Source of the DNA: an uncultured Gammaproteobacteria bacterium | Lineage (GTDB): Bacteria > Patescibacteriota > Patescibacteriia > UBA2196 | DNA: 64,000 nt | Assembly: GCA_964522515.1 (NCBI GenBank) | Contig: CAZFWC010000001.1 | Location: forward strand, 14,536-78,535 | Direction: 5' to 3' | Shown here: positions 2,287 through 63,609 of the stretch, in pieces | How the letters are laid out: every line of letters begins with the position of its first letter | Position numbering within the stretch: position 1 is the first letter of the stretch | Notes under the pieces: model-generated | What the model was told of the DNA's origin: nothing | The model's input: the letters and a program-made list of their open reading frames with translations, nothing else | The model's database searches: none | Translations under genes and position numbers: made by a program

Positions 2287-3732
2287 TTACGAAAGTAAAT
2301 CAATTCCTTTTTTAATTCTTATTAGACTTTTTTCTTTTCCTAAAACTTCCGCTACTTCAAATGGACCAGGAGAATTTTTTCTACCTGTTAAAGCAACGCG
2401 CAAAGGCCAAAGCGTGTCCCCTGTTCCCAAATTTTTAGCTTTGATTAATCCAATAATTAATTGTTCCAAAGCGCTACGAGTCCAGTTTTGTTCAGGAATT
2501 TTTTCTAATTCTTTGTGCAAAAATTCTAATTTTTGTTTTGCGTCAATTAAATCAGATTTTTTCCATTTTAATAATTCTTTATCATAATTTATTTTTTTAA
2601 AAAAATATTCTGTAGCTTCTGAAATTTCAGAAAGTTTTTTAATTCTTTCTTGCTCTAAAGCAACAACTTTTTGAATATATTTTTCATTGTAACTTTCAGA
2701 GTCAACTAAATTATTATCAATTAAATAAGGCAAACAAAGTTCAGCAAAATTTTCTAAATTTAATTTACGAATATAAAATCCGTTCATCCAATCTAATTTT
2801 TCTTTATCAAAAATTGCTCCAGCTTTGTGAACTTTTTCTAAAGAAAATTCATATTCAAGTTTTTCTAAAGTAAAAATTTCTCTTTCATCTCCTGGATTCC
2901 AACCAAGAAGCGCAATATAATTTATTAGCGCTTGCGCTAAATATCCTAATTTTTTAAATTCTAAAACTCCAACTGCTCCGTGTCGTTTTGATAATTTAGA
3001 TTTATCTGAAGCTAAAACCATTGGCAAGTGCGCAAATTTTGGAGTTTCCCAATTAAAATAATTATATAAAATAATATGTTTTGGTGTTGAAGGCAACCAC
3101 TCTTCTGCTCTGATAATGTGAGTAATTTTCATTTCGTGGTCGTCAACTACATTTGCCAAATGATAAGTTGGGTAGCCATCTGATTTTAAAAGTATTTGGT
3201 CGTCAATTTCTTCGTGATTAAATTCAACTTGACCTCGGATTAAATCAATGAATTTTGTTTTGCCTTCTGGAATTTTCATTCTAACAACACAAGGAATTTT
3301 AGCTTTTAATTTTTTTTCAATTTCTTCTTGAGTTAAATTTAAACAGCGACGGTCGTATTTTGGCGCTTGCTTGTTTTGCTCTTGATTTTGTCGCATTTTA
3401 ACTAAAGTTTTTTGAGTACAAAAACAATAATATGCTTTGCCTTCTTGCACAAGTTGTTCTGCGTATTTTTTATAAATTTTTATTCTTGAAGATTGATAAG
3501 GAATATTATTTAAATTATCTGGTTTTATTTTTGCCCATTTTAAACCATCTAAAATCGAATCAATACTTCCCTCTTTAAATCTTGCTTGATCTGTGTCTTC
3601 AATTCTTAATAAAAATTCACCATTATTTTTTTTAGCAAATAAATATGCAAAAAGCGCAGTTCTTAAACTGCCAATGTGTAAATCACCTGTTGGGCTTGGA
3701 GGAAATCTAGTTTTTATTTTATTATTTGTCAT
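2287..3732 (-). CDS. gltX: glutamyl-tRNA synthetase
   Basis: HIGH-type motif (PSPTGDLHIGSLRTA), KLSKR motif, full-length class I GluRS architecture. Confidence 0.9.
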   Translation of the reverse strand: MTNNKIKTRFPPSPTGDLHIGSLRTALFAYLFAKKNNGEFLLRIEDTDQARFKEGSIDSILDGLKWAKIKPDNLNNIPYQSSRIKIYKKYAEQLVQEGKAYYCFCTQKTLVKMRQNQEQNKQAPKYDRRCLNLTQEEIEKKLKAKIPCVVRMKIPEGKTKFIDLIRGQVEFNHEEIDDQILLKSDGYPTYHLANVVDDHEMKITHIIRAEEWLPSTPKHIILYNYFNWETPKFAHLPMVLASDKSKLSKRHGAVGVLEFKKLGYLAQALINYIALLGWNPGDEREIFTLEKLEYEFSLEKVHKAGAIFDKEKLDWMNGFYIRKLNLENFAELCLPYLIDNNLVDSESYNEKYIQKVVALEQERIKKLSEISEATEYFFKKINYDKELLKWKKSDLIDAKQKLEFLHKELEKIPEQNWTRSALEQLIIGLIKAKNLGTGDTLWPLRVALTGRKNSPGPFEVAEVLGKEKSLIRIKKGIDLLS

Positions 3733-12936: not shown

Positions 12937-13105
12937 TCCGCCTTCGCCCCTAATCCCGAGTACTCGGGACTACTGGACTATGGCGGATAAATTTCTAGTT
13001 CAGTTTTAAATTTTTTTTAATTTAAAAAAATTTAAAACTGCATTAAGAGCCTGCCCGCCGTAGCTAGGATTTTTTAGAGTTGAGGCGAAGGAGGGTTAGG
13101 CGAAT
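12937..13105. repeat. GC-rich composite palindromic element (with CCCGAGTACTCGGG sub-hairpin) filling the GT4 / radical-SAM intergenic gap
   Basis: same modules as 30..203; ends at the stop codon of 13106..14233. Confidence 0.85.
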
Positions 13106-17241: not shown

Positions 17242-19359
17242 TTAATAAGCTAAAATCTCAACTTCCTCATCTTGATCAATATCAAATGCGCTTACTTTAG
17301 CGCCGTTGCGAGAATCTGGATCAAAAGCAAAAAACCCAGGATCAACTAAATGACCAATTTTATCATAAATCCTAATGTGCGGACCGCCAGTTAAACCTGC
17401 TCCTGTAATTATCTCATCTTTTCCATCATTATTCAAATCTAGGCAAGCAACATTTACGCCACCTCTGAATTTTAAATCATAAGAAAAAAATCCAGGATCA
17501 AATAAATGTCCGTCAGATCTGAAAATTCTAATGTGTGGACCGCCACCAAAACCAGCGCCAGTTACAATTTCTTTGTAACCATTTCCATTTAAATCACCTA
17601 AAGCCACATTTACTCCACCACGAAAATTTTTATTATAAGCAAACCAGCCTGTGTGAATTAAGTTTCCTTGATAATTAAAAATTCTAATTTGCGGTCCGCC
17701 ACCTTGTTGCGTTCCAGTTACAATTTCTAATTTTTTATCATCTTGAATATTTCCAATTGCAATATTAATTCCTGAATTATATTTTTCTCCATAAGGATAA
17801 AAAGTTTTAACTAAATTATTTTGAGAATTAAAAATTTTAACTGAATTTGAATTTGCCACAATTGTTTCAAATTTTCCATCTTGGTCTAAATCAGAAATAT
17901 TAATTTGTGCGCCACCTTCAAATTTTGATAAGTAAGCAAAAAAACCAGATCTTTTATTGTTTCCGCGTTTATCAAAAATTCTTAAATAAGAACCATTTAT
18001 AAAAGTTGTATTTATTAAATTAAATTCTTCTTGATTGTTTTCCTGATTAATTAATTCTAATTTTTTTAATAAAATAATTCCGTCTTGTGCTGGTAAAAAA
18101 ATTTGTTTAACCAATTCTCCGTTATTTATTTTTTTATCTTGCACCCCACGAATTTTTTCATAAACTGCATTGTTGTCTAAATTAATTATTTGATTTTGCT
18201 GTGTAGAATTAACTAAAGCAATTCCGTTTTCAAAATCACGACGCCAAATTCCTGATTCGTATTGAACACTAAATTTGTCTTGCCCGCCGTAGCCTTGGCG
18301 AAGGTGGGTCAGTAAATTTTGCGCGGAATTAATTGGTTGACCTAAATTAATATTGTATTCATCATACCACCAAAGTTGAGAGTGATCTTCTGTGCCAAAA
18401 TCAAACGCAAAATATCCATTTTCTAACAAACTTGAAGCTAAACCAAAACGCACTTTTTTAAAATTATTTTTATCACCAGTATTATTTGTATTTGGGTTTA
18501 AAATAATAATATGTGGTAAATAATTAATAGAATTATTTAAATTTTTATAATCATTCATTTGTCCAACCCAACTTCCTTGCCATTTGTCTGGCCAAGATTC
18601 ATAAATTCTACCGTTAATAAAATTTTTTGTGTAACTTGAACTGTTAATTAAAATAATTTTATTATTTCCTAATTCTTTTCTAGTATTTTCTAATAATTTT
18701 TTCATTCCTTCTTGCCACTGGTTGTCAGTTAAATTTGTATTATTAATTTTATCTAAAACATTATCAAAAAAAACTCCATCCCAATTTCCAGTGTTAATTA
18801 ATTCTTGTTTAACAAATTTGGGTAGCCAAGAATTAAATTCAGAATTCGTAACATTAAATGAATAATTTCCTGGCCAAATTGAGTGAATATTATTTTGTTT
18901 ATCTTTTAACCACCAAGATGAATTAATTTGCGCATACATTTTATGCCACGGACCATTTGAGCTTTCTAAAATTTTATAATTTTGAATTGGAAATTCCATT
19001 GAAGAAAGATAAGCAATAATTTTAATATTAGGATTAAGATTTTTTAATTCAGAAAAAATATTTAGGTTTGTGTCTTGAACTTGCATTCCTAAAATAACCA
19101 CATCCCATTTTGCTAATTTATTTATTTCAGAATTTGAAATTGGAGTTTTTAAATAATAATTTGCAAGTTTTGGGTAGCTGTTATAACTAGCTTGCGCTGG
19201 TTGTAAAAATAAAAAAAACGCTAAAAAAATTAACGCCAATAAAACAAAAAAAGCAACATTTTTAAAGTTATTTTTTAAATTTATAAATTTGCTCCAATTC
19301 TTTATAATATTGTTCAGAATTGTACAATTTAGCCACTTTTTGTTGAATTTCATATTCAT
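17242..19359 (-). CDS. secreted protein: N-terminal glycoside-hydrolase-like domain plus C-terminal FG-GAP/beta-propeller repeats
   Basis: signal/TM anchor; repeated DxDxDG...VTGAGxGGGPHIRIF units (FG-GAP-like); contains an in-frame GC-rich element. Confidence 0.55.
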   Translation of the reverse strand: MNMKFNKKWLNCTILNNIIKNWSKFINLKNNFKNVAFFVLLALIFLAFFLFLQPAQASYNSYPKLANYYLKTPISNSEINKLAKWDVVILGMQVQDTNLNIFSELKNLNPNIKIIAYLSSMEFPIQNYKILESSNGPWHKMYAQINSSWWLKDKQNNIHSIWPGNYSFNVTNSEFNSWLPKFVKQELINTGNWDGVFFDNVLDKINNTNLTDNQWQEGMKKLLENTRKELGNNKIILINSSSYTKNFINGRIYESWPDKWQGSWVGQMNDYKNLNNSINYLPHIIILNPNTNNTGDKNNFKKVRFGLASSLLENGYFAFDFGTEDHSQLWWYDEYNINLGQPINSAQNLLTHLRQGYGGQDKFSVQYESGIWRRDFENGIALVNSTQQNQIINLDNNAVYEKIRGVQDKKINNGELVKQIFLPAQDGIILLKKLELINQENNQEEFNLINTTFINGSYLRIFDKRGNNKRSGFFAYLSKFEGGAQINISDLDQDGKFETIVANSNSVKIFNSQNNLVKTFYPYGEKYNSGINIAIGNIQDDKKLEIVTGTQQGGGPQIRIFNYQGNLIHTGWFAYNKNFRGGVNVALGDLNGNGYKEIVTGAGFGGGPHIRIFRSDGHLFDPGFFSYDLKFRGGVNVACLDLNNDGKDEIITGAGLTGGPHIRIYDKIGHLVDPGFFAFDPDSRNGAKVSAFDIDQDEEVEILAY
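18279..18310. repeat. intragenic in-frame GC-rich element core (FG-GAP protein gene)
   Basis: CTTGCCCGCCGTAGCCTTGGCGAAGGTGGG. Confidence 0.8.
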
Positions 19360-23824: not shown

Positions 23825-25819
23825 TTAGGGATTTTTTACAAAATATCCAGGATTGGTGTTGATTTGTGAAATACCAGATCCTTTTTGTAATTGATCCCAA
23901 TAAGCGAATCGTGGTTGAGTTCCGGATCCGCCAGATCCTTCCAAGCCAGGTGTTGCATCTTTCCAAAAAACTCCGTGGCTCAGTCGGGCGTCAGGAATAA
24001 CAAATTCAGTGTAATTTCCTTTGTCAGTTCCTTTAACCCAGTGATTTACAATCCAGCCAGTTGTTTCGTTTTGGTCAGAATCGTAAAGCTCCAGTCCGAG
24101 CCAATTTTCGTGTCCGTCACCAGAAAGTTTTACAACATTTCCAGACGCTTCCACTTTGAGCGGGTTAGCTGGTGTTTCTTCCTCTGCCAAATTAATTTCC
24201 ACCAGTGTCGTTTCATCAGCAACTGTCGTAAATTGTTTGGTTTGAGAAATCCAACCAGATTTTTCAACAGTTACTGAATGATTTCCGATGTTCAACCAGC
24301 TTATTCCTTCACCCCACGGTTGACCATTTAAACTAATGGTTGTGTGTTCCGGAGTGATTACTAAGTTGACCCAGGAGTCAGTAGTTGGTGTTGGTTGATT
24401 CCAATCAAATATGAACCAATTTTTGTAATCTATATTTGTTTCAAATGCAACACCAGAAATCATTTCCGGGTGACAGTCACTGTCTTTGTCGTACCAGTGA
24501 CCAGGATTGTCGACCAATGTGAATCTTCCGTAATCGGTGCAAGGTAGATTGTTTAGATAATATTTATACCAATCACCTTCAACTTGCATTTCAGAAAAAA
24601 ACACTTCAGTAATATTACACAAACTGGCATCAAATTTTACTTTTTCCCAGCCCAATTTTGTAACATTGGCTGAAAAATATAAATAATCTCCGTCACTTTT
24701 TGTTTTCCAGCATTCTGGTATCGGTTCAGGTTCTTCCTCTACCAAATTAATTTTCACTAAAGTTGTCTCATTAGCAACCGTAGTAAACTGTTTCGTTTGA
24801 GAAATCCAACCAGATTTTTCAACAGTTACTGAATGTTGACCAATACTTAGCCATCTTACACCCTCGCCCCAAAGTTGATCATTTAAATTAATGGTTGTGT
24901 TTTCTGGTGTGACCACTAAGTTGACCCAGGAGTCGGTGGTTGGTGTACAATTGTGGTCTAACTGAATTCGAAAGTCGTGTGTCCAATTTCCTGGACCGAC
25001 TTTTCGTGTTTCCAAAAATCCTAAATGATCTTCAGCTGTGGCGGACACAGTATAATCACCAGCTGGTAGATTCTCAATATGAACTGGAATATTTTTTTGC
25101 AAAGTCCCAGTCTGCAATCCATTATTAGGTCCTTTTACTTGGTAAGACGCAGTTTCAGGTCTTACAAGCAAAAGAGTTAGGCGACCAGTTGAGTCGGGTT
25201 CTGATTCTGACAAAACAACCAAAGTCGGATTAAAAGTCGTTGGTTGTTTTTTTAAAATTTCAAATGTTGTCACGAAATTTTGATAATTTTTCCGGCAAAT
25301 TTTTAAATCGTAGAAACCCACCTCAAGTGTGTCGCGAAAAGACGGCTGATCGTCCAAAATGTAGCCAATTAAATTTCCGCTCACCCAAACTTCGGCTCCG
25401 TTTGTGGTTTCATTTTTATTAACCACAAGGTAACCGTATTGAGTGGAGTCAATGGTTGTTGTGTCCTGCGTAGTTGTGTCAGGTTCAGCAACAACAACAG
25501 AATCCAATTCGTAGTGGTACCAACCTGGACCTATTTGGCTAACATTGATATTTTTGAAACCAGATTTTTTAATTACACCAATAATTTTTTCTTCCAAAGA
25601 AACTTGGAAAGAATCAGGTGTAACCAATGAATCAGATCCGTAGAAAAATTTGGCGTTTTGCGGAAAAGTTGAAAAACGGGCTAAATTTTTTGCAGATTCA
25701 TCAACTTTTTCAATTTTTTCTGGCTGATTTGGAGCTTTTTTTCCACAACCAACTACAACAAACAGAGAAATTGCCAAAATGGCAATTAAGACGAGATTTA
25801 AAAAATTTCGATTTAACAT
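23825..25819 (-). CDS. secreted lipoprotein with two near-identical PEGA-like beta-sandwich repeats
   Basis: lipobox VVGCGKK; two roughly 75-aa repeats (TDSWVNLV.TPE.TTI.LN.Q.WGEG..WL.IG.HSVTVEKSGWISQTKQFTTVA.ETTLV.INL) differing at only about 12 positions; locally GC-richer. Confidence 0.5.
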   Translation of the reverse strand: MLNRNFLNLVLIAILAISLFVVVGCGKKAPNQPEKIEKVDESAKNLARFSTFPQNAKFFYGSDSLVTPDSFQVSLEEKIIGVIKKSGFKNINVSQIGPGWYHYELDSVVVAEPDTTTQDTTTIDSTQYGYLVVNKNETTNGAEVWVSGNLIGYILDDQPSFRDTLEVGFYDLKICRKNYQNFVTTFEILKKQPTTFNPTLVVLSESEPDSTGRLTLLLVRPETASYQVKGPNNGLQTGTLQKNIPVHIENLPAGDYTVSATAEDHLGFLETRKVGPGNWTHDFRIQLDHNCTPTTDSWVNLVVTPENTTINLNDQLWGEGVRWLSIGQHSVTVEKSGWISQTKQFTTVANETTLVKINLVEEEPEPIPECWKTKSDGDYLYFSANVTKLGWEKVKFDASLCNITEVFFSEMQVEGDWYKYYLNNLPCTDYGRFTLVDNPGHWYDKDSDCHPEMISGVAFETNIDYKNWFIFDWNQPTPTTDSWVNLVITPEHTTISLNGQPWGEGISWLNIGNHSVTVEKSGWISQTKQFTTVADETTLVEINLAEEETPANPLKVEASGNVVKLSGDGHENWLGLELYDSDQNETTGWIVNHWVKGTDKGNYTEFVIPDARLSHGVFWKDATPGLEGSGGSGTQPRFAYWDQLQKGSGISQINTNPGYFVKNP

Positions 25820-26953: not shown

Positions 26954-27008
26954 AGCCTGTCCGCCGTAGTCCAGTAGTGTTTGTTAAGGGCGAAGGCGGG
27001 TTAGGCGA
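26954..27008. repeat. GC-rich element, short copy abutting stop of 27009..28472
   Basis: CTGTCCGCCGTAGTCCAGTAG...GGCGAAGGCGGGTTAGGCGA. Confidence 0.8.
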
Positions 27009-29360: not shown

Positions 29361-30167
29361 TTACTTTGTCAAAATTTCACTTCCTTTTTCAGTTACTAAA
29401 ATTGTGTGTTCAAAATGCGCAGCTAAGGAATTGTCTTCGGTTTTAAACGCGTTAGTTTTTTTATCAACAACAACATCTGGATTCCCAGCTGTAACCATTG
29501 GCTCAATTGCTAAAGTCATTCCTGATTTTAAAATCGGACCAGTTCCTTTTTTCCCAAAATTTGGAATTTGTGGAGGCTCGTGCAATTTTTTTCCAACCCC
29601 GTGCCCAACTAATTCATAAACCACGCTAAATTTATTTTTTTCAACAAATCTTTGAATTTCATAAGAAATATTACCTAAATAAATTCCTGGTTTTATTTTT
29701 TTAATTGCTAAATCCAAAGATTTTTTAGTTACACTCAGAAGTTTTTTTGTTGAATGAGAAATTTTTCCAATTGAAACTGTTTTTGCCATATCTGTAATCA
29801 TTCCATTCCCTCCTTCGCCAAGCCTGCCTGACGGCAAGGCAGGGCTACAGCGGGCAGGTTTTGCAGGATATCTTAATCCAATATCAATACTTAAAATATC
29901 TCCATCTTGTAAAATGCGATTTGGAATTGCTGGCGCGTGCACAACTTCATTATTAATACAAGTACAAATCGCTGTTGGAAATCCTTGATAACCTTTAAAT
30001 ATTGGCCAACCATTTATTTTTTTTATTTCTTTTTCCGCTAATTCATTTAGTTCTTTTGTGCCAACACCAATATCAGCTTTTTTAATAAGCAAATTTAAAA
30101 TTCGCGCTAAATGTTTTCCGCATTCTCGCATTATTTCAATTTCTTTTGGGGTTTTTATGATAATCAT
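29361..30167 (-). CDS. map: methionine aminopeptidase type I
   Basis: MetAP pita-bread fold motifs (HGVGKKLHEPPQIPNFG, metal ligands); carries about 57-bp in-frame GC-rich element insertion. Confidence 0.85.
   Translation of the reverse strand: MIIIKTPKEIEIMRECGKHLARILNLLIKKADIGVGTKELNELAEKEIKKINGWPIFKGYQGFPTAICTCINNEVVHAPAIPNRILQDGDILSIDIGLRYPAKPARCSPALPSGRLGEGGNGMITDMAKTVSIGKISHSTKKLLSVTKKSLDLAIKKIKPGIYLGNISYEIQRFVEKNKFSVVYELVGHGVGKKLHEPPQIPNFGKKGTGPILKSGMTLAIEPMVTAGNPDVVVDKKTNAFKTEDNSLAAHFEHTILVTEKGSEILTK
29808..29866. repeat. intragenic in-frame GC-rich element (map)
   Basis: CCTCCTTCGCCAAGCCTGCCTGACGGCAAGGCAGGGCTACAGCGGGCAGG. Confidence 0.8.
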
Positions 30168-33960: not shown

Positions 33961-34096
33961 CTCCGCCTTCGCTTCTAAAAAATCCTACTGGACTACGGCG
34001 GATAAACTCTTGTGTTTAAAATTTAAAAAACATAGGAGCCTGTCCGCCGTAGCTAGAGTTTTTTTAGGATTGAAGGCGGAGGAGGATTAGGCGCAA
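33961..34096. repeat. GC-rich composite element between rplR and rpsE
   Basis: shared modules; right end at rplR stop, left end 9 nt from rpsE start. Confidence 0.85.
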
Positions 34097-35734: not shown

Positions 35735-35900
35735 TCCGCCTTCGCCCTTAAAAAATCCTTTAACACTACGGCGGATAAATTTTTAGTGTTTTTTTATAAA
35801 AAAGAATTAAGAGCCTGCCCGCGCCGGCTTGTCCGCCGTAGCCTTTGGCAAGGAGGAAGCTAGAGTTTTTTTAGAGTTGAAGCGAAGGAGGGTTAGGCGA
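35735..35900. repeat. GC-rich composite element between rpsN and rpsH
   Basis: shared modules. Confidence 0.85.
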
Positions 35901-36096: not shown

Positions 36097-36221
36097 CTCC
36101 GCCTTCGTTCCCTAAAAATCCTACTGGACTACGGCGGATAAACTCTTGTGTTAAAAAAACACAGAAGCTTGCCCGCCGTAGCTGGGACTTTTAGGATTGA
36201 AGCGAAGGAGGGGAAGCTAAA
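36097..36221. repeat. GC-rich composite element between rplE and rpsN
   Basis: shared modules. Confidence 0.85.
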
Positions 36222-38452: not shown

Positions 38453-38598
38453 ATCCGCCTTCGCCCCTAATCCCGAGTACTCGGGACTACTGGACTACGG
38501 CGGATACCTGTCTGCCGACAGGCAGGAACTCTTGTGTTAAAAAAGCACAGGAGCTTGCCCGCCGTAGCTAGGACTTTTAGGGTTGAAGCGAAGGAGGG
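38453..38598. repeat. GC-rich composite element between rpsC and rplP
   Basis: shared modules incl. CCCGAGTACTCGGG sub-hairpin. Confidence 0.85.
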
Positions 38599-39240
38599 TT
38601 AAACAAATTTTTCACCTTTATAAATCCAAATCTTAACTCCAATTGCTCCGTAAGTTGTGCGAGCTGTTGCTGTTCCATAATCAATATCAGCGCGCAAAGT
38701 GTGCAAAGGAATTTTTCCTTGAGTTAATTTTTCAGTGCGAGCAATTTCTACTCCGCCTAATCTTCCAGCGCAATGAACTTTCACACCTTGCGCACCAGCT
38801 TTTATAATTGCTTCAATATTTCTTTTCATTGAACGACGGTACGGAATTCTTTTTTCTAATTCAAGAGCAATATTTTGCGCCATTATTTGCGCGCAAAGTT
38901 GTGGCTTGTTAACTTCTTTTATATTAATTTGTAGTTTGATTTTTTTATTTTTTATAATTTTTTTTAATAAATAATTTTTAATTTCTTCAACTCCAACTCC
39001 GCCTCGCCCAATAATAATTCCTGGTTTTGATGAATGCAAAATTATATTAATGTTGTCGGGTGATCTTTCAATTTCAACACTTTTTAAACTGCAGTCCCTA
39101 AGTTTACTATTTAAATATTCTCTCAATTTTGTATCTTGTTCAAGTTGTCGCGCAAAAGCAGGTCCACGCTTAAACCAGCGAGAAGCCCAATTTTCGCTTA
39201 AACCAATTCTGAAAATTTTAGGATTTACTTTGTGACCCAT
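38599..39240 (-). CDS. rpsC: 30S ribosomal protein S3
   Basis: KH domain and S3 C-terminal domain (GRLGGVEIARTE). Confidence 0.9.
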   Translation of the reverse strand: MGHKVNPKIFRIGLSENWASRWFKRGPAFARQLEQDTKLREYLNSKLRDCSLKSVEIERSPDNINIILHSSKPGIIIGRGGVGVEEIKNYLLKKIIKNKKIKLQINIKEVNKPQLCAQIMAQNIALELEKRIPYRRSMKRNIEAIIKAGAQGVKVHCAGRLGGVEIARTEKLTQGKIPLHTLRADIDYGTATARTTYGAIGVKIWIYKGEKFV

Positions 39241-46400: not shown

Positions 46401-46458
46401 GAGCCTGTCCGCCGTAGCTAGAGTTTTTTAGGATTGGGGGCGTAGGCGGATTAGGCGA
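46401..46458. repeat. GC-rich element short copy abutting stop of acidic protein gene
   Basis: GAGCCTGTCCGCCGTAGC...TTTTTTAGGATTGGGGGCGTAGGCGGATTAGGCGA. Confidence 0.8.
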
Positions 46459-47978: not shown

Positions 47979-49490
47979 GTGTATAATAAAAATGAGGTGA
48001 TAATAATTAAAAATAAAATTATGGAAAACAGAACACTTTATTTTGGCGACAATTTAGAAATTTTAAAAGAAAAAATTCCTGATGAAGTTTTTGATTTGAT
48101 TTATCTTGATCCGCCTTTTAATTCCAATCGCAACTACAATGTCATTTTTAAAGAAGGACTGATGGATAGCGAAGCGCAAATTCAAGCATTTGAAGATTCT
48201 TGGCATTGGACACCAGAAACTAAAAAAACATTTGATTATTTGGTAAGAAAAACCAATGATGGAATTTCAAATTTAATGCAGGCTTTGGAAAAAATGATTG
48301 GCAATAATGATATGCTGGCGTATTTAACAATGATGACAGTGCGATTGATTGAATTGCATCGAGTTTTAAAAAAAACCGGCAGTTTATATTTACACTGCGA
48401 CCCAACAGCAAGTCATTATTTAAAACTCGTTTTGGATGTGATTTTTGGAAAAGATAAATTTAGAAATGAGATAGTGTGGTGGTATCACGATCCTTCTGGT
48501 ACAACTTTAAATAAGTTTAAAAGGAAGCATGATATAATATTCTTTTATACCAAATCCGATGATTATATTTTTAATGCAGATGCAGTTAGGACTCCTTATA
48601 CAGAAAGCACTTTAAAGCAAGGTGAAAGAGGGACAATTTCTTTTGGAAGACCAACCAAAACTCATCCTCTAGGGAGAGTATGTGAAGATGTTTGGGAAAT
48701 ACCAATAATTAATTCTATGTCTAAAGAACGGCTTGGCTATCCTACCCAAAAACCAGAAATGCTTTTGGAAAGAGTTATCAGGGCATCATCAAAAGAAGGT
48801 GATTTAATTTTAGATCCATTTTGTGGTTGTGGCACAACTGTTTCTGTGGCAGAAAGATTAGACAGAAAGTGGGTTGGTATTGATATTACAATGTTAGCTA
48901 TAAATCTTATTAAGAAAAGAATGAGAGAGCAGTTTGAAGATAAAAATATAAAAATAAATATTGATGGTTTGCCAAAAGATTTATCTGGTGCATTGGCTTT
49001 GGCAAAAAAGGATAGATTTGAATTTGAATATTGGGCATTAAGTTTAATTGATGCAATGCCAGCAAAAAGTAAAAGCAAAGAAAATATGCGAGGCGCTGAC
49101 AAAGGTATTGACGGCACACTAGCACCAATTACCGGCGTTAAAAATGGCAATATGCAATATGGCAGAATTTTAATTCAAGTAAAAAGTGGTGGTGTAAAAC
49201 GAAATGATATTGCCACACTCAAAGGAGATATTGAAAGAGAAAAAGCAATTGGTGGTGTTTTTGTCACTTTAGAAAAACCAAGTAAGCCAATGTTGGAAGA
49301 GGCAGTTTTATCCGGAGAATATACTGTTGAATTTTTTAAAGGTGAATTTCCTAAAGTACAAATTTTAACCATAGAAGAATTGTTGCACGGGAAAAAATTA
49401 AATTTGCCATTATGGTCAAAAGAATATCATAAAAAAGCAAAAAAAGTTGAAATTGAAAAAAATAAATTTCAGGTGGGATTGGGGGTGTAG
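47979..49490 (+). CDS. beta-class N6A/N4C DNA methyltransferase fused to C-terminal Mrr-like (PD-D/ExK) restriction-endonuclease domain; likely true start near 48021 (MENRTLYFGDNLEIL)
   Basis: motif IV DPPF (IYLDPPFNSN) before motif I (DPFCGCGTT); C-terminal DKGIDG...ILIQVK resembles Mrr catalytic core. Confidence 0.8.
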   Translation: MYNKNEVIIIKNKIMENRTLYFGDNLEILKEKIPDEVFDLIYLDPPFNSNRNYNVIFKEGLMDSEAQIQAFEDSWHWTPETKKTFDYLVRKTNDGISNLMQALEKMIGNNDMLAYLTMMTVRLIELHRVLKKTGSLYLHCDPTASHYLKLVLDVIFGKDKFRNEIVWWYHDPSGTTLNKFKRKHDIIFFYTKSDDYIFNADAVRTPYTESTLKQGERGTISFGRPTKTHPLGRVCEDVWEIPIINSMSKERLGYPTQKPEMLLERVIRASSKEGDLILDPFCGCGTTVSVAERLDRKWVGIDITMLAINLIKKRMREQFEDKNIKINIDGLPKDLSGALALAKKDRFEFEYWALSLIDAMPAKSKSKENMRGADKGIDGTLAPITGVKNGNMQYGRILIQVKSGGVKRNDIATLKGDIEREKAIGGVFVTLEKPSKPMLEEAVLSGEYTVEFFKGEFPKVQILTIEELLHGKKLNLPLWSKEYHKKAKKVEIEKNKFQVGLGV

Positions 49491-50503: not shown

Positions 50504-52636
50504 TTATTTATTTTTTCCTTCCACAATTTCCTCTGCCACATTTTTCGGAACTTCTGCGTAGTGATGAAATTCCATTGTTGAAGTTCCACGGCCTTGAGTA
50601 ATTGAACGCAAAGTTGTAACATATCCAAACATTTGAGCCAAAGGCACTTCCCCATCAATAACTTTTAAATTCCCGCGCTCTTTCATTTCATTAATTTTCG
50701 CGCGTCTAGAACTTAAATCACCAATCACATCACCCATATATTCTTCAGGCACAAGAACTTCAATTTTCATAATTGGTTCAAGCAAAATTGAACCCGCATT
50801 TTTAGCAGCTGCTTGAAAAGCAATTGAGCCCGCCATTTTAAACGCAATTTCAGAAGAATCAACTTCGTGAAAAGATCCATCAAACACACTTGCTTTAATA
50901 TCTACCATTTGATAACCAGCAACAATTCCTCGGCTCATTGCTTCTTTAACGCCTTTTTGAATTGCTGGAATATATTCTTTTGGAATCACTCCGCCTTTAA
51001 TTGCGTCAACAAATTCAAAATTTTCTGTTTTAAGAGATTGATCTTTAGAATCTTTTTCTTTTGGTTCAATTCTAAGCCAGCAGTGTCCATATTGTCCGCG
51101 TCCACCAGATTGTTTAATATATTTTCCTTCTGCTTCAGCTATTTTTTTAATTGTTTCTTTGTAAGCAACTTGCGGTTTGCCAACATTACATTCAACTTTA
51201 AATTCTCGTTTCATTCTTTCAACTAAAACATCTAAATGCAATTCTCCCATTCCCGAAATAATTGTTTCTAAAGTTTCTTCATCGGTTTTAATTTGAAAAG
51301 TTGGATCTTCTTGCGCTAATTTATTTAAAGCCAATCCCATTTTTTCTTGATCAGTTTTTGTTTTTGGTTCAACAACAACTGAAATTACTGGCACTGGAAA
51401 AATAATTTTTTCTAACACAACAGGACTATTTTCACTACAAATTGTGTCGCCAGTTGTTGTTTGTTTTAATCCAACAGCCGCGGCAATTTCACCAGAAAAA
51501 ACTTCATCAACATCTTCTCGCGAGTTTGCGTGCATTCTTAAAATTCGTCCTAATCTTTCTTTTTTCCCAGTAGTTGTGTTTAAAATATAAGTTCCAGCTT
51601 TAATTGTTCCGGAGTAAACTCTAAAAAAAGCCAAACTGCCAACAAAAGGATCAGTTGCAATTTTAAAAGCTAAAGCAGAAAACGGTTCTTTGTCATCAGC
51701 TTTTCTAATTTCTTTTTGAGATTCCCTGTCCGCCGTAGCTTTAGCGAAGGAGGAATTTTTTGGATTAAAACCTTGAACAGACGGGACATCTAAAGGCGAA
51801 GGCAAAAAATCATTAACAGCGTCCAAAACAAACTGCACACCAATATTTTTTAAAGCAGAACCTGCTAAAACTAAATAAATATTATTTGATAAAGTTCCTT
51901 TTCTTAAACCTTTTTTAATTTCGTCAATATTTAATTCTTTTCCATTTAAAAATTTTTCTAACAAATCATCATCTTGTTCAGCGGCTTTTTCAATTAATTC
52001 TGCGCGATATTTTTCAGCCTGCTCTTTTAAATCAGCTGGGATTTCAATTTCATTAATTTCTTCGCCGTGCTCTCCTTTAAATTCAAAAGCTTTCATTTCT
52101 AAAATATGAATTACGCCTTTTAAATTTTCTTCAGCTCCAATTGGAATTGTATAAGCAATTGCGTTTGGATTTAATCTTTGTTTAATTGATTCAATACTCA
52201 TTTTAAAATCCCCGCCCATTTTATCCATTTTATTAATAAAAGCGATTCTTGGAACTTTGTATTTATCAGCTTGACGCCAAACAGTTTCTGATTGTGGCTC
52301 AACACCTTGGGCTCCGTCAAAAACCGCAACTGCTCCGTCAAGCACACGCAAACTTCTTTCAACTTCTGCTGTAAAATCAACATGACCCGGAGTGTCAATA
52401 ATGTTGTAGCAAAAATCTTTCCAAAAACAAGTTGTCGCTGCTGAAGTAATTGTAATTCCTCTTTCTTTTTCTTGTTCCATCCAATCCATTTCAGATTCAC
52501 CTGTGTGAGTCTCGCCAATTTTGTGTTTTTTTCCAGTGTAAAATAAAACACGCTCTGTAAAAGTTGTTTTACCAGCATCAATGTGGGCTATTATTCCAAT
52601 ATTTCTAGTTTTTTCTAAAGTATATTTTCTTGGCAT
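50504..52636 (-). CDS. fusA: elongation factor G (with in-frame GC-rich element insertion)
   Basis: [18 protein letters not shown]-motifs, full five-domain length. Confidence 0.95.
51724..51755. repeat. intragenic in-frame GC-rich element core (fusA)
   Basis: CTGTCCGCCGTAGCTTTAGCGAAGGAGG encodes ...AKATADRES... in an EF-G loop that is longer than in E. coli EF-G. Confidence 0.8.
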
Positions 52637-54378: not shown

Positions 54379-54384
54379 AAATTA

Positions 54385-54540
54385 TTTTAATTTCCAATTT
54401 CCAAGATACAATTTCCAAATAAATCTCAAAAATCAAATTCCAAAAAAATATTATAAAATAATAATTTAAATAAAATATTGGAAATTGAAATTTGGAACTT
54501 ATTTGGAAATTGGAAATTGTATCTTGGAAATTTAAATCTT
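54385..54540. repeat. long AT-rich inverted repeat built from TTCCAAN heptamers flanking M50 protease gene start
   Basis: AATTTCCAATTTCCAAGATACAATTTCCAAATAA ... TTATTTGGAAATTGGAAATTGTATCTTGGAAATT. Confidence 0.7.
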
Positions 54541-60088: not shown

Positions 60089-60094
60089 ATTTAT

Positions 60095-60245
60095 TTTTTA
60101 AAGCTCCAAGATACAAGTTCCAAATCCCAAATAAATATCAAATTTCAATTTTCAGTATTTTATTAAAATTATATTTTTATAATATTTTTTTGTAATTTGA
60201 TTTTTGGAATTTATTTGGAAATTGTTTTTTTGGAAATTGGAAATT
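60095..60245. repeat. related AT-rich GGAAATT/CCAAAT heptamer inverted repeat between ftsE and ftsX
   Basis: CCAAGATACAAGTTCCAAATCCCAAATAAAT ... ATTTATTTGGAAATTG...GGAAATTGGAAATT. Confidence 0.6.
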
Positions 60246-60995
60246 TTAGAGTAGATATCTTCCTTTTTCCTGATCAGCAGACACAGTACCATTTTCTAAA
60301 GTAATCACGCGTTTATGCAAAGAATTTACAACTTCTCTGTCGTGCGTAACTAAAAGAATTGTTGTGCCAAACTCATTTATTTTTTGTAAAATATCAATAA
60401 TATCTCGTGTGTTAATTGAATCTAAATTTCCAGTTGGCTCGTCAGCAATTAAAATTTTTGGCCTGTGAATTAATGCTCTGGCAATTGAAACTCGTTGTTG
60501 TTCCCCGCCAGATAATTCTTGCGGGTACCTGTTTGTTTTTTCTTCAAGCCCAACAATTTTTAAAACTTGCGGAACAATTTTTTCTATTTTTTTATTTGTG
60601 GAACCAGAAACTTCTAAAGCAAAAGCAACATTTTCAAACGCGGTTTTTTTTGGAAGTAATTTAAAATCCTGCCAAACTACACCAATTTGTCTTCGTAAAA
60701 GCGGAACATGTCTGCGTTTTATTTTTGTAATATCCCAACCGCCAACAATAATTTTCCCTTTAGAAATTGGTTCTTCTGAAATCAAAAGTCGCACAGCTGT
60801 TGTTTTGCCTGTGCCTGATTGACCAACTAAAAAAACAAACTCTCCTGGTTTAATATGGAACGAAGCATTTTTTAATGCATTTACATCGGGTTTATAAAAT
60901 TTTGATACATTTCTAAATTGAATCATAAAATAATTTTCAGTAATCAATTTTCCCGCCTGCCAAATCTCACTGGCGGGCAGGCAATTTTCAAACAA
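60246..60995 (-). CDS. ftsE: cell division ATP-binding protein FtsE (true start probably MIQFRNV near 60926)
   Basis: Walker A GQSGTGKTT, ABC signature LSGGEQQR, Walker B ILIADEPT. Confidence 0.85.
   Translation of the reverse strand: MFENCLPASEIWQAGKLITENYFMIQFRNVSKFYKPDVNALKNASFHIKPGEFVFLVGQSGTGKTTAVRLLISEEPISKGKIIVGGWDITKIKRRHVPLLRRQIGVVWQDFKLLPKKTAFENVAFALEVSGSTNKKIEKIVPQVLKIVGLEEKTNRYPQELSGGEQQRVSIARALIHRPKILIADEPTGNLDSINTRDIIDILQKINEFGTTILLVTHDREVVNSLHKRVITLENGTVSADQEKGRYLL
60950..60983. repeat. GC palindrome (CCCGCCTGCC...GGCGGGCAGG) in ftsE 5' region
   Basis: 10-bp arms, 14-nt loop; related to element helix module. Confidence 0.55.
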
Positions 60996-61475: not shown

Positions 61476-62285
61476 TTAATAAGACACAACTCTAACTCCT
61501 AAAACCCCTCCCCCTGGATTTCCAATTTTACTAAAAGCTGTTTTTGTTAAATCAACAATTCTGTTATCAACAAAAGGTCCTGTGGAAACTACTTTAACTT
61601 TAACACATTTTTGCAAATTATCTAAACGACAAACTTTAATAAAAGTTCCAATTTTGTAATTGTTTGACGCGCAGTTGTAAGCAGAACTTGGAGTTAACGC
61701 GTCTCCGTACCAACTTGCCCAAGCTTCAAATTCATTTGGAATTTCAAAAACAGCTAAAATCGCGTAAGGCAAATGAATCACAGCGCGAGTTAAATTATTT
61801 TCTAAATCATTTGTGCCAGGCAAAGGTTTCCATTTTTTTGATCCTCCGTCCCAAAAAAACATTTGTTTGCGAAGCATTTTTGTATTTTTAAATTCATCTT
61901 TTAATTCAGGATTTTTAATTGCCACAAAAAGTGGTTTGTTTAAAACACCAATTCTTGGATCTCCTAAAAAATCAAATTCCCAAGCAGATGAAACTCGTTT
62001 GTAATTTAACTCGTTTCCGAATTTGTCAACCACTGGTCCAACAGGCGCCCAGCTTTCATTTAATTCTCGTAAAACCGCAGTGGCAGACTGTGAAATTGCT
62101 TTGTCCACTACACCTAATTTAAATTCGTTGTCTCCTGCAACAACTGTGTAGCCTTTTAAAATTGTTGCTTCATCAATAAATAATTTCCACTCTCTTTTTG
62201 TCCAAGGTTCTGTTTGAGCCTCTACAAAATTAAAAGTTAAAAAAGTTAAAATTAATAAAATTAGTAGTAAAATTTTTCTTGACAT
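61476..62285 (-). CDS. secreted RlpA-like double-psi beta-barrel protein
   Basis: signal peptide; C-terminal WASWYGD...VVSTGPF...IVDLTKTAF resembles RlpA DPBB. Confidence 0.6.
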   Translation of the reverse strand: MSRKILLLILLILTFLTFNFVEAQTEPWTKREWKLFIDEATILKGYTVVAGDNEFKLGVVDKAISQSATAVLRELNESWAPVGPVVDKFGNELNYKRVSSAWEFDFLGDPRIGVLNKPLFVAIKNPELKDEFKNTKMLRKQMFFWDGGSKKWKPLPGTNDLENNLTRAVIHLPYAILAVFEIPNEFEAWASWYGDALTPSSAYNCASNNYKIGTFIKVCRLDNLQKCVKVKVVSTGPFVDNRIVDLTKTAFSKIGNPGGGVLGVRVVSY

Positions 62286-62328: not shown

Positions 62329-62826
62329 TTAATTTACTTCCCCAATATTTTCTGCAATGATTTCTAAAGCTGCATTATGGAGTTTATTTCCAGAATTATT
62401 AGCACATAAATTTTTTAAAACAATAATTTTAAAACCCCGATCAAACGCATCGCGTGCAAAAGTCAAAACACAATTTTCAGTCTGGATTCCTCCTAAATAA
62501 ATATCTGTAATTTTGTTTTCCTTTAAAATATTAAAAATTTTGTTATCAACAAAACTGCTGTAAGTATTTTTTACAAAAAGATTGTTTTGATTAATAAATT
62601 TTTTTATTTCATCAACTAAATCATATTCTGCTCGTTTCATAAAACTATGATAATTTAAATTTTTAACAAAATAACTGTCGGGTTTGTTTTTAAATTGAGT
62701 AAATAAAATAAGATCAAATTTATTTTTGTTTCTTTGAATAAAATTCTTAGTTCTTGCTGGCAGATGTTTTGTTCTCTTATCTATAAAACCTTTTTGCAAG
62801 TCAATAATTATTAAAGCTTTTTTCAT
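62329..62826 (-). CDS. isochorismatase-family (cysteine hydrolase) protein
   Basis: ALIIIDLQKGF N-terminus, catalytic-Cys region NCVL. Confidence 0.6.
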   Translation of the reverse strand: MKKALIIIDLQKGFIDKRTKHLPARTKNFIQRNKNKFDLILFTQFKNKPDSYFVKNLNYHSFMKRAEYDLVDEIKKFINQNNLFVKNTYSSFVDNKIFNILKENKITDIYLGGIQTENCVLTFARDAFDRGFKIIVLKNLCANNSGNKLHNAALEIIAENIGEVN

Positions 62827-62867
62827 ATTTTTATTTTTCTAATTTTTATATTAAAATTAATTTAGTT

Positions 62868-62938
62868 GCGGGTGTAGTTCAGTGGCAGAACATGAGCTTC
62901 CCAAGCTTAAGACGGCAGTTCGATTCTGCTCACCCGCT
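62868..62938 (+). tRNA. tRNA-Gly (anticodon CCC)
   Basis: close to canonical bacterial tRNA-Gly(CCC): GCGGGTGTAGTTCAGTGGCAGAAC...GCTTCCCAAGC... Confidence 0.85.
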
Positions 62939-62943
62939 TTTTG

Positions 62944-63126
62944 GCCGAAGTAGCTCAGTTGGTAGACCTGCCCGCCCTAGCCTGAGCCCTTTTAGCTCAA
63001 TTGGTAGAGCAACGGTATCGTAAACCGTAGGTTGTCAGTTCGAATCTGACAAAGGGCTAAGGCGATGGCAGGCGGGGCAGTGCTTTCGTAAAGCAAAGGT
63101 CGTGAGTTCAATTCTCGCCTTCGGCT
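62944..63126 (+). other. tRNA-like gene (anticodon loop UUCGUAA, CGU) split at D-stem positions 23/24 by a 110-bp insertion (62967..63076) closed by a 10-bp GC helix and containing tRNA-Thr
   Basis: 5' part GCCGAAG-TA-GCTC-AGTTGGTA-GA; 3' part GC-A-GTGCT-TTCGTAA-AGCAA-AGGTC-GTGAG-TTCAATT-CTCGC-CTTCGGC-T; acceptor 7/7 complementary. Confidence 0.5.
62986..63058 (+). tRNA. tRNA-Thr (anticodon CGU)
   Basis: perfect cloverleaf GCCCTTT-TA-GCTC-AATTGGTA-GAGC-A-ACGGT-ATCGTAA-ACCGT-AGGTT-GTCAG-TTCGAAT-CTGAC-AAAGGGC-T. Confidence 0.85.
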
Positions 63127-63190
63127 TTTTAAACTTTAATGCTTTTAAATAAAAATTTTAATCTAAAATTTTTTATTTAAAAGAACTAGA

Positions 63191-63243
63191 AGCCCGCCAG
63201 CCGAAGCAATAAAGGGTTGTTAAAGGCGAAGGCGGGTGAGCGA
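63191..63243. repeat. GC-rich element short copy abutting ftsB stop
   Basis: GCCCGCCAGCCGAAGC...GGCGAAGGCGGGTGAGCGA. Confidence 0.7.
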
Positions 63244-63609
63244 TTACTGAAAAAAATATTCAAACCACAATTCTGGCATTGATTTGTTTTTTTGTGTTTT
63301 TGTATTTTCTTGTTTTTGTTCTGGAATAATTACAAGTTTTTCTCCGGGCTTTGCTAAACCTAATTTTTCCCTAGCTTGTTTTTCCACAAATTCTGTTTCA
63401 GAAAAAAAATCAATTAATTGACTTAATTCTTGATTTTGTTTTTCTAAAACAAAAATTTCATTTTCAAGTTCAAATGCTTTTTCTGTATTATTTTTTTGTT
63501 GATTTAAATTTTTAACAATAACACTAGCTAATAAAATAAAAATAATTAACAAACAAAAAATAGCTAATTTAGAAGATAATATTTTTTTAGCAGTATAATT
63601 CTGTTTCAT
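63244..63609 (-). CDS. ftsB: FtsB/DivIC-like septum formation initiator
   Basis: N-terminal TM, coiled coil, ...EKQAREKLGLAKPGEKLVII motif. Confidence 0.5.
   Translation of the reverse strand: MKQNYTAKKILSSKLAIFCLLIIFILLASVIVKNLNQQKNNTEKAFELENEIFVLEKQNQELSQLIDFFSETEFVEKQAREKLGLAKPGEKLVIIPEQKQENTKTQKNKSMPELWFEYFFQ

Follow-up and report, generated by a model that had tools for sequence, protein, structure and literature searches.

A tRNA-Thr(CGU) gene nested in the D stem of a second tRNA-Thr(CGU) gene suggests a hairpin cassette that overwrites tRNA genes in Patescibacteria

Anatomy of the nested tRNA locus

In a stretch of 64,000 nucleotides (contig CAZFWC010000001.1, assembly GCA_964522515.1; "the window" in the following) a gene for tRNA-Thr(CGU) is interrupted in its D stem by an insert that itself carries a complete tRNA-Thr(CGU) gene. 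Such tRNA-in-tRNA insertions recur in relatives and in metagenomic contigs, and this recurrence suggests a selfish element, undescribed so far, by which essential tRNA genes are overwritten. The locus is one example of a widespread phenomenon for which there is apparently no earlier description. The window has a GC content of 28% and is a bacterial segment with ftsE/ftsX, divIC, the genes for EF-Tu and EF-G and a ribosomal-protein operon; its proteins have homologs from Patescibacteria, the nearest named group being Kuenenbacteria.

All parts of the nested locus lie on the forward strand. The 5' half of the resident, interrupted gene (62944–62966, GCCGAAGTAGCTCAGTTGGTAGA; referred to as the outer copy) corresponds to tRNA positions 1–23 and covers the 5' strand of the acceptor stem, the 5' strand of the D stem, the D loop, and G22 and A23 of the 3' strand of the D stem. 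It is identical at 23 of 23 positions to the 5' half in the relative L284, and it aligns with the plain tRNA-Thr gene of the relative L279. Between D-stem positions 23 and 24 follows an insert of exactly 110 bp (62967–63076), which consists of a 5' arm of 19 nt (62967–62985, CCTGCCCGCCCTAGCCTGA) with a conserved arm end in its terminal 10 nt, an intact inner or cargo tRNA-Thr(CGU) called by ARAGORN (62986–63058, Rfam score 70.2 bits), and a 3' arm of 18 nt (63059–63076, AAGGCGATGGCAGGCGGG) that pairs with the 5' arm. The inner tRNA is presumably the functional gene. The 3' half of the outer copy (63077–63126, tRNA positions 24–73) comprises G24 and C25 of the D stem, the anticodon arm with the anticodon CGT at 63087–63089, the variable loop, the T arm, the 3' strand of the acceptor stem and a discriminator T; Rfam gives only a sub-threshold partial tRNA match of 22.3 bits here, and its T arm and acceptor agree with those of the plain L279 ortholog. 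The coordinates that a sequence-only reading of this DNA had given for the outer halves, the insert and the inner tRNA proved correct throughout.

In the native sequence only the inner tRNA-Thr(cgt) and an upstream tRNA-Gly(ccc) are called by ARAGORN, and Rfam sees the same two genes. With the 110 bp taken out, 62944–62966 and 63077–63126 together are recognised by ARAGORN as a 73-nt tRNA-Thr(cgt), which bears out the earlier placement of the insertion between D-stem positions 23 and 24. The exact removal restores the tRNA with zero duplicated bases, i.e., there is no target-site duplication. In the joined outer gene the acceptor stem is paired at 7/7 positions, the D stem at 4/4, the T stem at 5/5 with one G.T pair, and the anticodon stem at 4/5, with a G27.A43 mismatch. 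This mismatch had been regarded as the only defect of the outer copy, an assessment that does not hold: it belongs to the normal make-up of this tRNA type, since other bacteria have tRNA-Thr(CGU) genes with the same anticodon arm, mismatch included, and no interruption (for example L028, L100 and L131).

The terminal 10 nt of the two arms pair at 9 of 10 positions (eight Watson-Crick pairs and one T.G, with one C.A mismatch), as had been proposed from the letters alone. From there the helix runs on via GCCT/AGGC to the acceptor stem of the inner tRNA, so that the arms stack beneath it; over their full length (62967–62985 and 63059–63076) they pair at 13 of 16 positions, one T.G counted. Folding the region with RNAfold (184 nt) gave −74.8 kcal/mol with z = −4.2, and the insert alone reached z = −5.4.

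The inner and the outer copy of the window are 70% identical and differ by compensated stem changes. This is an argument that the cargo represents a foreign functional allele, and a local duplication was ruled out as its source for the same reason. The insert contains no open reading frame (ORF), and its flanks are complementary halves of one tRNA and not direct repeats. Neither a ribozyme nor Intron_gpI was matched in Rfam between 62800 and 63300 at the gathering threshold or at E<=1. A bulge-helix-bulge (BHB) motif is absent from the junctions in the predicted folds, where each junction is found at the foot of a continuous helix. A scan of 62700–63300 for promoters and terminators found none.

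Hairpin arms and related repeats

The sequence-only reading had noted that the ends of the insert resemble the core of a repeat family, and the 5' arm indeed matches the repeat core of the window, CCTGCCCGCCGTAGC, at 14 of 15 positions. Allowing up to one mismatch, the 5' arm core occurs 24 times in the window compared to 0.28 expected occurrences, and the pair of arm ends, CCTGCCCGCC-N85-95-GGCAGGCGGG, occurs once compared to 0.00 expected; a chance occurrence is thereby excluded. The same 10-nt 5' arm end is found at the same D-arm junction in L045, L061, L284 and at least 37 metagenome loci. The 3' arm end GGCAGGCGGG, which was not demanded by the search pattern, recurs in most other cassettes. 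Just upstream of ftsE (60952–60981) there is an empty hairpin whose arm ends are the same in flipped form, CCCGCCTGCC-AAATCTCACT-GGCGGGCAGG, so that the arm module also occurs cargo-free in this genome.

The window is saturated with related GC-rich hairpin repeats, including in-frame copies within ORFs, and this saturation shows an active hairpin-element biology in the genome. One GC-rich repeat, CCTG[CT]CCGCCGTAGC...GCGAAGGAGG, lies in five ORFs and is read through in three different frames (51725–51753, 7722–7751, 11010–11059, 18279–18308 and 29809–29858). The copy at 51725–51753, within the EF-G ORF on the minus strand (50504–52636), represents a clean insertion of ten residues compared to solved EF-G structures. 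In this respect the repeat is similar to Rickettsia palindromic elements (RPE).

In common with REP and RPE families and with MITEs (miniature transposable elements with inverted repeats), the insert is a short non-coding hairpin with imperfect terminal inverted repeats, is multicopy, its arms being found in dozens of further genomes, and shows presence/absence polymorphism at orthologous sites (empty in L273, L275, L279 and L281, filled in the window and L284). The lack of a target-site duplication sets it apart from classical MITEs and fits REP or IS200/IS605-type elements.

The locus in relatives and strains

The tRNA-Gly(CCC) gene called by ARAGORN lies 5 nt upstream of the outer tRNA-Thr in the same orientation (62868–62938, Rfam 67.3 bits). 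The gene order LepA-DivIC-[tRNA-Gly(CCC), tRNA-Thr(CGU)]-DPBB-FtsE-FtsX-tRNA-Gln is kept in relatives found via FtsE (81–85% identity), and judging from this synteny the Gly(CCC)-Thr(CGU) pair is a conserved resident arrangement. For comparison we took the eight closest relatives via syntenic ftsE, which form an unbiased sample. Synteny via the adjacent isochorismatase gene was dropped in favor of ftsE, as its top homologs were at most 64% identical and their neighbourhoods unrelated.

Four of the eight relatives (L273, L275, L279, L281) have a plain tRNA-Thr gene, and four (L277, L282, L283, L284) have a relic together with a cargo. In L273, L275 and L281 a single tRNA-Thr(CGU) follows 2–4 nt 3' of tRNA-Gly, comparable to the 5 nt in front of the outer copy in the window. 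L279 has an ORF between tRNA-Gly and its plain tRNA-Thr; this gene aligns to both outer halves of the window without the 110 bp and can be regarded as the empty site. The homologous locus in relatives had been named as a point of comparison, and the arrangement turned out to be widespread and recursive.

The filled relatives differ in insertion site, arm variant or state of decay, and the relic-plus-cargo arrangements of the window and the four relatives do not all stem from a single event. L284 has the closest synteny, including the isochorismatase gene, with an FtsE that is 82% identical; its outer allele is the same as that of the window, and a near-identical cassette (34 of 37 arm positions identical) splits it at the same position. 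Its inner tRNA shows compensatory changes relative to the inner tRNA of the window at pairs 5:68 and 27:43, and its outer anticodon loop is destroyed by a second hairpin. L282 retains, besides the inner copy, no more than an arm and the outer 5' half; its inner copy is identical to the plain allele of L275. The cassette of L283 sits in the D arm and has variant arms, and in L277 it sits in the anticodon loop at position 35/36 with flipped arms.

The neighbouring tRNA-Gly of L283 is also replaced. Its region 3363–3540 holds an intact Gly gene, then an arm ending in GGCGGGCAGG, then the 3' part of an older Gly gene from anticodon-loop position 36 onwards; as read from this order, the tRNA-Gly(CCC) gene has likewise been overwritten. 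ORFs of about 100–116 amino acids lie by the tRNA pair in L277 (3357–3668), L279 (3338–3688), L282 (3544–3855) and L283 (3559–3882), between tRNA-Gly and tRNA-Thr in L277, L279 and L283 and just upstream of tRNA-Gly in L282, and no Pfam family is recorded for any of the four. The tRNA-Gly/tRNA-Thr locus takes other insertions too.

Small ORFs for GIY-YIG nucleases (82–124 amino acids) were observed beside tRNA genes in relatives: in L273 (6935–7381; also in L274), L282 (6892–7343) and L284 (5731–5991). The ORF of L273 lies between an intact tRNA-Gln(UUG) and a second tRNA-Gln that is 5'-truncated and interrupted by a CCCGCCCGC hairpin; that of L282 adjoins tRNA-Gln. In the metagenome contigs L168, L206 and L246 a GIY-YIG ORF lies within 350 nt of a nested tRNA. 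It is possible that such nucleases drive tRNA-gene replacement, which we regard as a lead and not as a finding.

Within the species, the nested arrangement is identical in five independent assemblies from several samples (ENA, JGI, Logan), which argues that it is not an assembly artefact; matching contigs are present in the lake series of JGI 3300028161–3300028169. A co-occurring strain, contig L002, has a G-to-A change at 63088 on the forward strand, which converts the outer anticodon from CGT to CAT and is the sole difference in 2367 aligned nucleotides. Two further contigs of the species from two samples, L005 and L006, are identical to the window until the variable loop of the inner tRNA (breakpoint at about 63036/63037); past this point they have a different T arm and acceptor (GTGGGTTCAATTCCCACGGTCGGCT) followed by an unrelated gene of 270 amino acids, and the acceptor stem of the resulting hybrid tRNA is mismatched. 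L005 also has eight single-nucleotide polymorphisms (SNPs) clustered at 61878–61947 and, on account of this clustering, looks like a real recombinant strain and not like a chimera.

Distribution and regularities of nested tRNA genes

Outside the closest relatives, a degenerate anticodon-arm pattern on genome contigs, for which the matches listed were mostly from unrelated phyla, led to L017, L045, L061 and plain relatives. By tblastx and direct reading the D-arm 23/24 architecture is present in metagenome-assembled genomes (MAGs) named Saccharibacteria (L045) and Moraniibacteriota (L061), and a Levybacteria MAG (L017) has a related form with a D-arm hairpin and a cargo insertion in the anticodon loop. 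JGI metagenomes were scanned with the exact junction 17-mer TGGTAGA|CCTGCCCGCC. Among the 120 matches listed, at least 37 have a tRNA on the same strand just downstream. The cargo, taken as the first intact tRNA downstream, is Thr(CGU) in 14 of these 37 loci, Thr(GGU) in six, Thr(UGU) in five, Leu in four, and Ala, Ile, Lys and Met in two each. The tRNA-context contigs used for the comparison of composition have a median GC content of 44%, compared to 65% for the contigs of the other 83 listed matches, which lack a tRNA context and are random. As a negative control, viral contigs gave 18 random matches to the same junction pattern, all in GC-rich phage contigs, and none with a tRNA context.

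To run ARAGORN on every deletion end point is too permissive, as hybrids of an outer 5' half and an inner 3' part are called; nested copies were therefore judged by strict pairing of the acceptor and the T arm and by manual reading. The innermost copy is intact in all nested loci, whereas only about nine of about 45 outer copies are competent to form a cloverleaf. The remaining outer copies, approximately 80%, have further hairpins in the anticodon loop, the D loop or the T arm, or are truncated up to the loss of a half. A second hairpin occupies the outer anticodon loop in L135, L157, L161, L196, L283 and L284. Relic anticodon loops have been struck repeatedly at one place, by a short hairpin followed by TAAACTCC (TCCGCC-NNN-GGCGGA-TAAACTCC and variants), and the same module makes up the D1 and D2 repeats of the window.

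In all 12 loci with a readable outer anticodon, the anticodon of the cargo equals that of the host gene (Thr CGU, GGU and UGU; Ala GGC). If the outer anticodon has been lost, the D arm and the acceptor still assign outer copy and cargo to one tRNA type (Ala UGC, Lys, Leu), and for Ile and Met an intact copy of the same type adjoins a truncated relic. Among the loci examined, an interrupted tRNA was never found alone: within it or next to it there was always an intact tRNA with the same anticodon.

Insertions are also nested serially: L213, L206 and L241 have three levels, of which only the innermost is intact, and both the 23/24 and the 35/36 site are used. One cassette is found in different host genes, L061 and L196 being 97% identical in their arms and 98.6% in their inner tRNA compared to 62% in their outer genes. 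Conversely, the same arms hold different cargo, as those of L061 (Thr CGU) and L197 (Thr UGU) are 100% identical. The arms of L190 and L227 are 95% identical. In two pairs of genomes (L238/L241 and L209/L213) one and the same tRNA allele takes the outer role on one side and the innermost role on the other. Taken at the level of sequence comparison, these patterns indicate that the cassette is modular and moves.

Interpretation

We consider it probable that the resident gene of the window was overwritten by a hairpin cassette that is mobile and non-autonomous and brings a replacement tRNA; the outer copy would be a young relic of this gene. The cassette consists of the imperfect inverted-repeat arms CCTGCCCGCC... 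and ...GGCAGGCGGG and a complete foreign tRNA-Thr(CGU) as cargo. It would have inserted without target duplication at D-stem position 23/24 of the resident tRNA-Thr(CGU) behind tRNA-Gly(CCC), and thereby have split and inactivated this gene. The co-oriented cargo, transcribed from the same operon, would assume the decoding, and RNase P together with 3' processing could free it from the arm helix, at whose tip it sits. The outer halves would remain as a relic that is still competent to form a cloverleaf and is no longer selected. The interruption of its D stem, the loss of the anticodon loop in L284 and the anticodon SNP in L002 would fit such a relic.

Mobility would act at the level of DNA, either by transposition or by homing, with an enzyme supplied in trans. 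In the homing variant a nuclease would cut intact tRNA genes, and repair would copy in the cassette-bearing allele. The match between cargo and host anticodon may arise because, with single-copy tRNA genes, only those insertions survive that replace what they destroy. Further hairpin insertions and deletions would later wear down the relics, until a plain gene, the former cargo, is all that remains, and L275 and L282 suggest this end state. The absence of a target duplication, the hairpin ends with two conserved mismatches and the occurrence of either arm orientation are reminiscent, by analogy only, of single-stranded-hairpin elements (REP/RAYT, IS200/IS605).

Three explanations had been offered before: a palindromic insertion that destroyed one gene copy, a replacement of a tRNA gene mediated by an element, and a two-piece outer tRNA. 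The first two are here taken together and fit the match to the repeat core, the uninterrupted gene of L279 at the same locus and the presence of the cassette type in many genomes; the third is disfavored, as discussed below.

Several observations weigh against a mobile cassette. Apart from its insertion the outer copy of the window is intact and without point decay, and in L213 two interrupted levels are still perfectly paired; a relic model thus needs very recent events or very high insertion rates. The outer anticodon arm of the window differs from the allele of L279 and L284 by several compensated changes, so that either the insertions of the window and L284 are independent or recombination acted on the relic. 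A unit of arms plus cargo outside a tRNA gene was not seen, and the preferred sites 23/24 and 35/36 have no evident sequence in common. Among approximately 50 ORFs from the 64-kb window that were compared with Pfam, there was no transposase, integrase or endonuclease. The metagenome sample was moreover selected on the 5' junction sequence.

Alternative explanations

It is unlikely, in our judgement, that no dedicated element exists and that the nested loci result from the uptake of foreign DNA followed by illegitimate or short-homology recombination, the hairpins being hot spots of recombination or uptake, or products of palindrome-driven rearrangement. Patescibacteria are thought to depend on DNA uptake, alleles swap their outer and inner roles between genomes, the inner copy of L190 is 94.5% identical to its own outer copy, the recombination breakpoint of L005/L006 lies within the inner tRNA, and different arm families (L167, L283) share the same architecture. 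Such a process fits poorly with junctions that, in numerous independent loci and across many tRNA types, fall on 23/24 or 35/36 to the exact base, and with arm ends that are nearly invariant across classes with both mismatches included. Arms that are 100% identical around different cargo, and empty hairpins of the same type elsewhere, point in the same direction. Together, the precise junctions, invariant ends, cargo swaps and empty hairpins suggest a defined element with defined ends.

A functional precursor scaffold appears quite improbable. Here the outer halves would not decode and, together with the arms, would aid transcription, folding or processing of the inner tRNA, or would form a regulatory tRNA-like RNA. 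The architecture recurs across classes of Patescibacteria, outer acceptor stems are often paired at 7/7 positions, and in several outer anticodon loops (L135, L157, L161, L196, L283, L284) there is a hairpin of similar kind, with TAAACTCC behind it and compensated stems. This hairpin is, however, another dispersed repeat family of these genomes, with D1 and D2 in the window. The outer 3' halves are often wholly deleted (L160, L189, L282), the remaining parts of the outer copies are heterogeneous, and since half of the closest relatives have a plain gene without outer halves, a scaffold role is difficult to maintain.

Somewhat more doubtful still is a rescue at the level of RNA. The 183-nt unit would be transcribed, RNase P/Z would excise the inner tRNA, and the outer pieces, clamped by the arms, would be trimmed and ligated or would act as a two-piece tRNA. 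Both copies would then be functional, and the hairpins at 23/24 and 35/36 would represent a new kind of bacterial tRNA intron. The outer copy of the window and those of eight other loci keep a perfect cloverleaf and the right anticodon, L213 keeps all stems in its two interrupted levels, the arms always unite the two halves, and the insertion sites are precise and recurrent. We set aside covariation among outer copies as a sign of function, because it is equally expected from divergence of the resident genes before each insertion.

The relatives and strains speak against such a rescue. In L284 a near-identical insertion in the same outer allele is accompanied by the loss of the outer anticodon loop, while the compensatory changes lie in the inner tRNA; approximately 80% of the outer copies have suffered damage or truncation, each interrupted gene that was found had an intact counterpart with its anticodon within it or next to it, and the SNP of L002 hits the outer anticodon. 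The junctions offer a continuous helix instead of a bulge-helix-bulge, and there is no ribozyme match. In established ribosome structures the D stem near positions 24–26 contacts helix 69 of the 23S rRNA, where a 16-bp side helix should clash. The conservation of the arm-end sequence, both mismatches included, suggests recognition of DNA rather than selection for RNA pairing.

The chance of an assembly or chimera artefact is negligible: the data are metagenomic and L005/L006 could in principle be chimeric via a 43-nt stretch common to tRNAs, but the five independent assemblies agree and the architecture occurs in dozens of unrelated ones.

Comparison with known systems

A tRNA nested in a tRNA had been called an arrangement not known from bacteria, and the literature we consulted, including PMC13011429, the tFind preprint (10.1101/2020.01.27.920355) and PMC9897764, contains no description of tRNA-in-tRNA genes or of hairpin cassettes that carry a tRNA. 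Partial resemblance exists to several known systems.

Integrative islands and prophages also target tRNA genes, keep a functional tRNA through the element and leave non-functional fragments behind; such fragments have been reviewed (PMC9897764). They differ in being kilobases long, in encoding an integrase, and in duplicating only the 3' part of the gene as direct att repeats, with the fragments side by side. The cassette, in contrast, has 110 bp, no gene other than a complete tRNA, and inverted-repeat ends without direct repeats; it lies within the D stem or the anticodon loop and nests recursively. An integrase-mediated tRNA island was ruled out for the window, as there is neither an ORF in the 110 bp nor a pair of direct att repeats.

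RPE, REP/BIME and MITE-like hairpins share with the cassette that they are short, multicopy, imperfect palindromes, GC-rich in the genomes considered here, which are spread across a reduced AT-rich genome. RPE-like elements are moreover tolerated in frame in protein genes, as in the EF-G of the window with its ten additional amino acids, and can insert in loops of other copies. The known families carry no cargo, whereas here a complete tRNA that matches the gene struck sits at the tip of the hairpin. Neither a RAYT nor an IS200/IS605 TnpA was seen among the window ORFs, and the arms start directly at the junction.

The free-standing GIY-YIG homing endonuclease SegB of phage T4 reportedly drives the inheritance of the T4 tRNA gene region. 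A tRNA allele that spreads selfishly, by cutting its rival and copying the donor, would be common to both systems, and GIY-YIG ORFs lie beside several nested or duplicated tRNAs in relatives. The difference is that there is no endonuclease gene in or near the cassette of the window, and that SegB does not yield nested genes flanked by hairpins.

The disrupted tRNAs of archaea and red algae (BHB introns, split and permuted genes) are likewise broken outside position 37/38, including in the D arm, and helices unite their halves. They require a BHB motif, a splicing endonuclease and a ligase, and no second copy of the interrupted gene exists. The cassette is bacterial and has no BHB motif, the interrupted copies are accompanied by an intact one in every case, and they decay. 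An archaeal-type BHB intron or split tRNA was thus ruled out by the absence of bulges, by the bacterial genome (FtsE/FtsX, DivIC, EF-Tu, EF-G) and by the intact copy of the same anticodon inside.

Bacterial group I introns possess a conserved catalytic core (P3–P9) and are typically longer than 200 nt. They were ruled out for the insert, which has no Intron_gpI match, is 110 nt long, of which 73 nt are tRNA, and lies in the D stem and not in the anticodon loop. In tRNA genes of Patescibacteria group I introns have been described, including at an unusual 35/36 site (PMC13011429). The phylum is thus the same, the 35/36 site coincides with the second cassette site in relatives, and the interrupted genes are missed by standard finders in both cases. 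What differs is the lack of a ribozyme core, the length of 110 nt, the position of the insert in the D stem in the window, and that the harm is offset by the carried gene instead of by self-splicing.

If the proposed reading is true, Patescibacteria harbour tiny selfish cassettes that neutralise the damage to an essential gene by carrying a complete replacement, which is unlike the self-splicing of introns and inteins and unlike the restoring of fragments by integrative islands. The tRNA alleles of minimal genomes would turn over by horizontal overwriting and leave matryoshka relics, and tRNA genes could serve as markers of gene flow among uncultured lineages. Standard tRNA finders would silently miss or mis-call nested loci, and gene callers would put spurious ORFs over them. 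There should also exist an enzyme, either a nuclease or a transposase, that recognises two precise positions in tRNA genes and would be a candidate for a new site-specific DNA tool. The locus further provides a clean natural test of how fast an inactivated tRNA gene decays. If instead the rescue at the level of RNA were true, the nested genes would be polycistronic tRNA-in-tRNA units with a new bacterial pathway of tRNA splicing or assembly.

Further observations in the window

A second repeat family, TTTTTAGGATTG.GGCG.AGGAGG.TTAGGCGA, adjoins the stop-codon end of eight genes on the minus strand (170–203, 13070–13103, 26975–27008, 34061–34094, 35867–35900, 36187–36220, 38573–38606 and 46425–46458). 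It is often joined with other hairpin modules in mosaic intergenic blocks (families D1–D9), and its members may be terminators or elements that target gene ends.

At 47979–49490 the forward strand, which is not the strand of the neighbouring genes, encodes a fusion of an N6/N4 DNA methylase with an Mrr-like restriction endonuclease domain. GC and AT skew are reversed in this patch, and the gene is probably a horizontally acquired restriction-modification gene.

Two ~150-nt copies of an internally palindromic sequence (54384–54537 and 60093–60242), which are 84% complementary to each other, flank a segment of 5.5 kb with NDK, YchF, a response regulator, a peptidase S51 gene, tRNA-Gln and FtsX. 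Finally, a direct repeat of 216 nt with 83% identity (24176–24391 and 24731–24946) is located within a PEGA-domain ORF (23825–25819), in the most GC-rich part of the window (37%).

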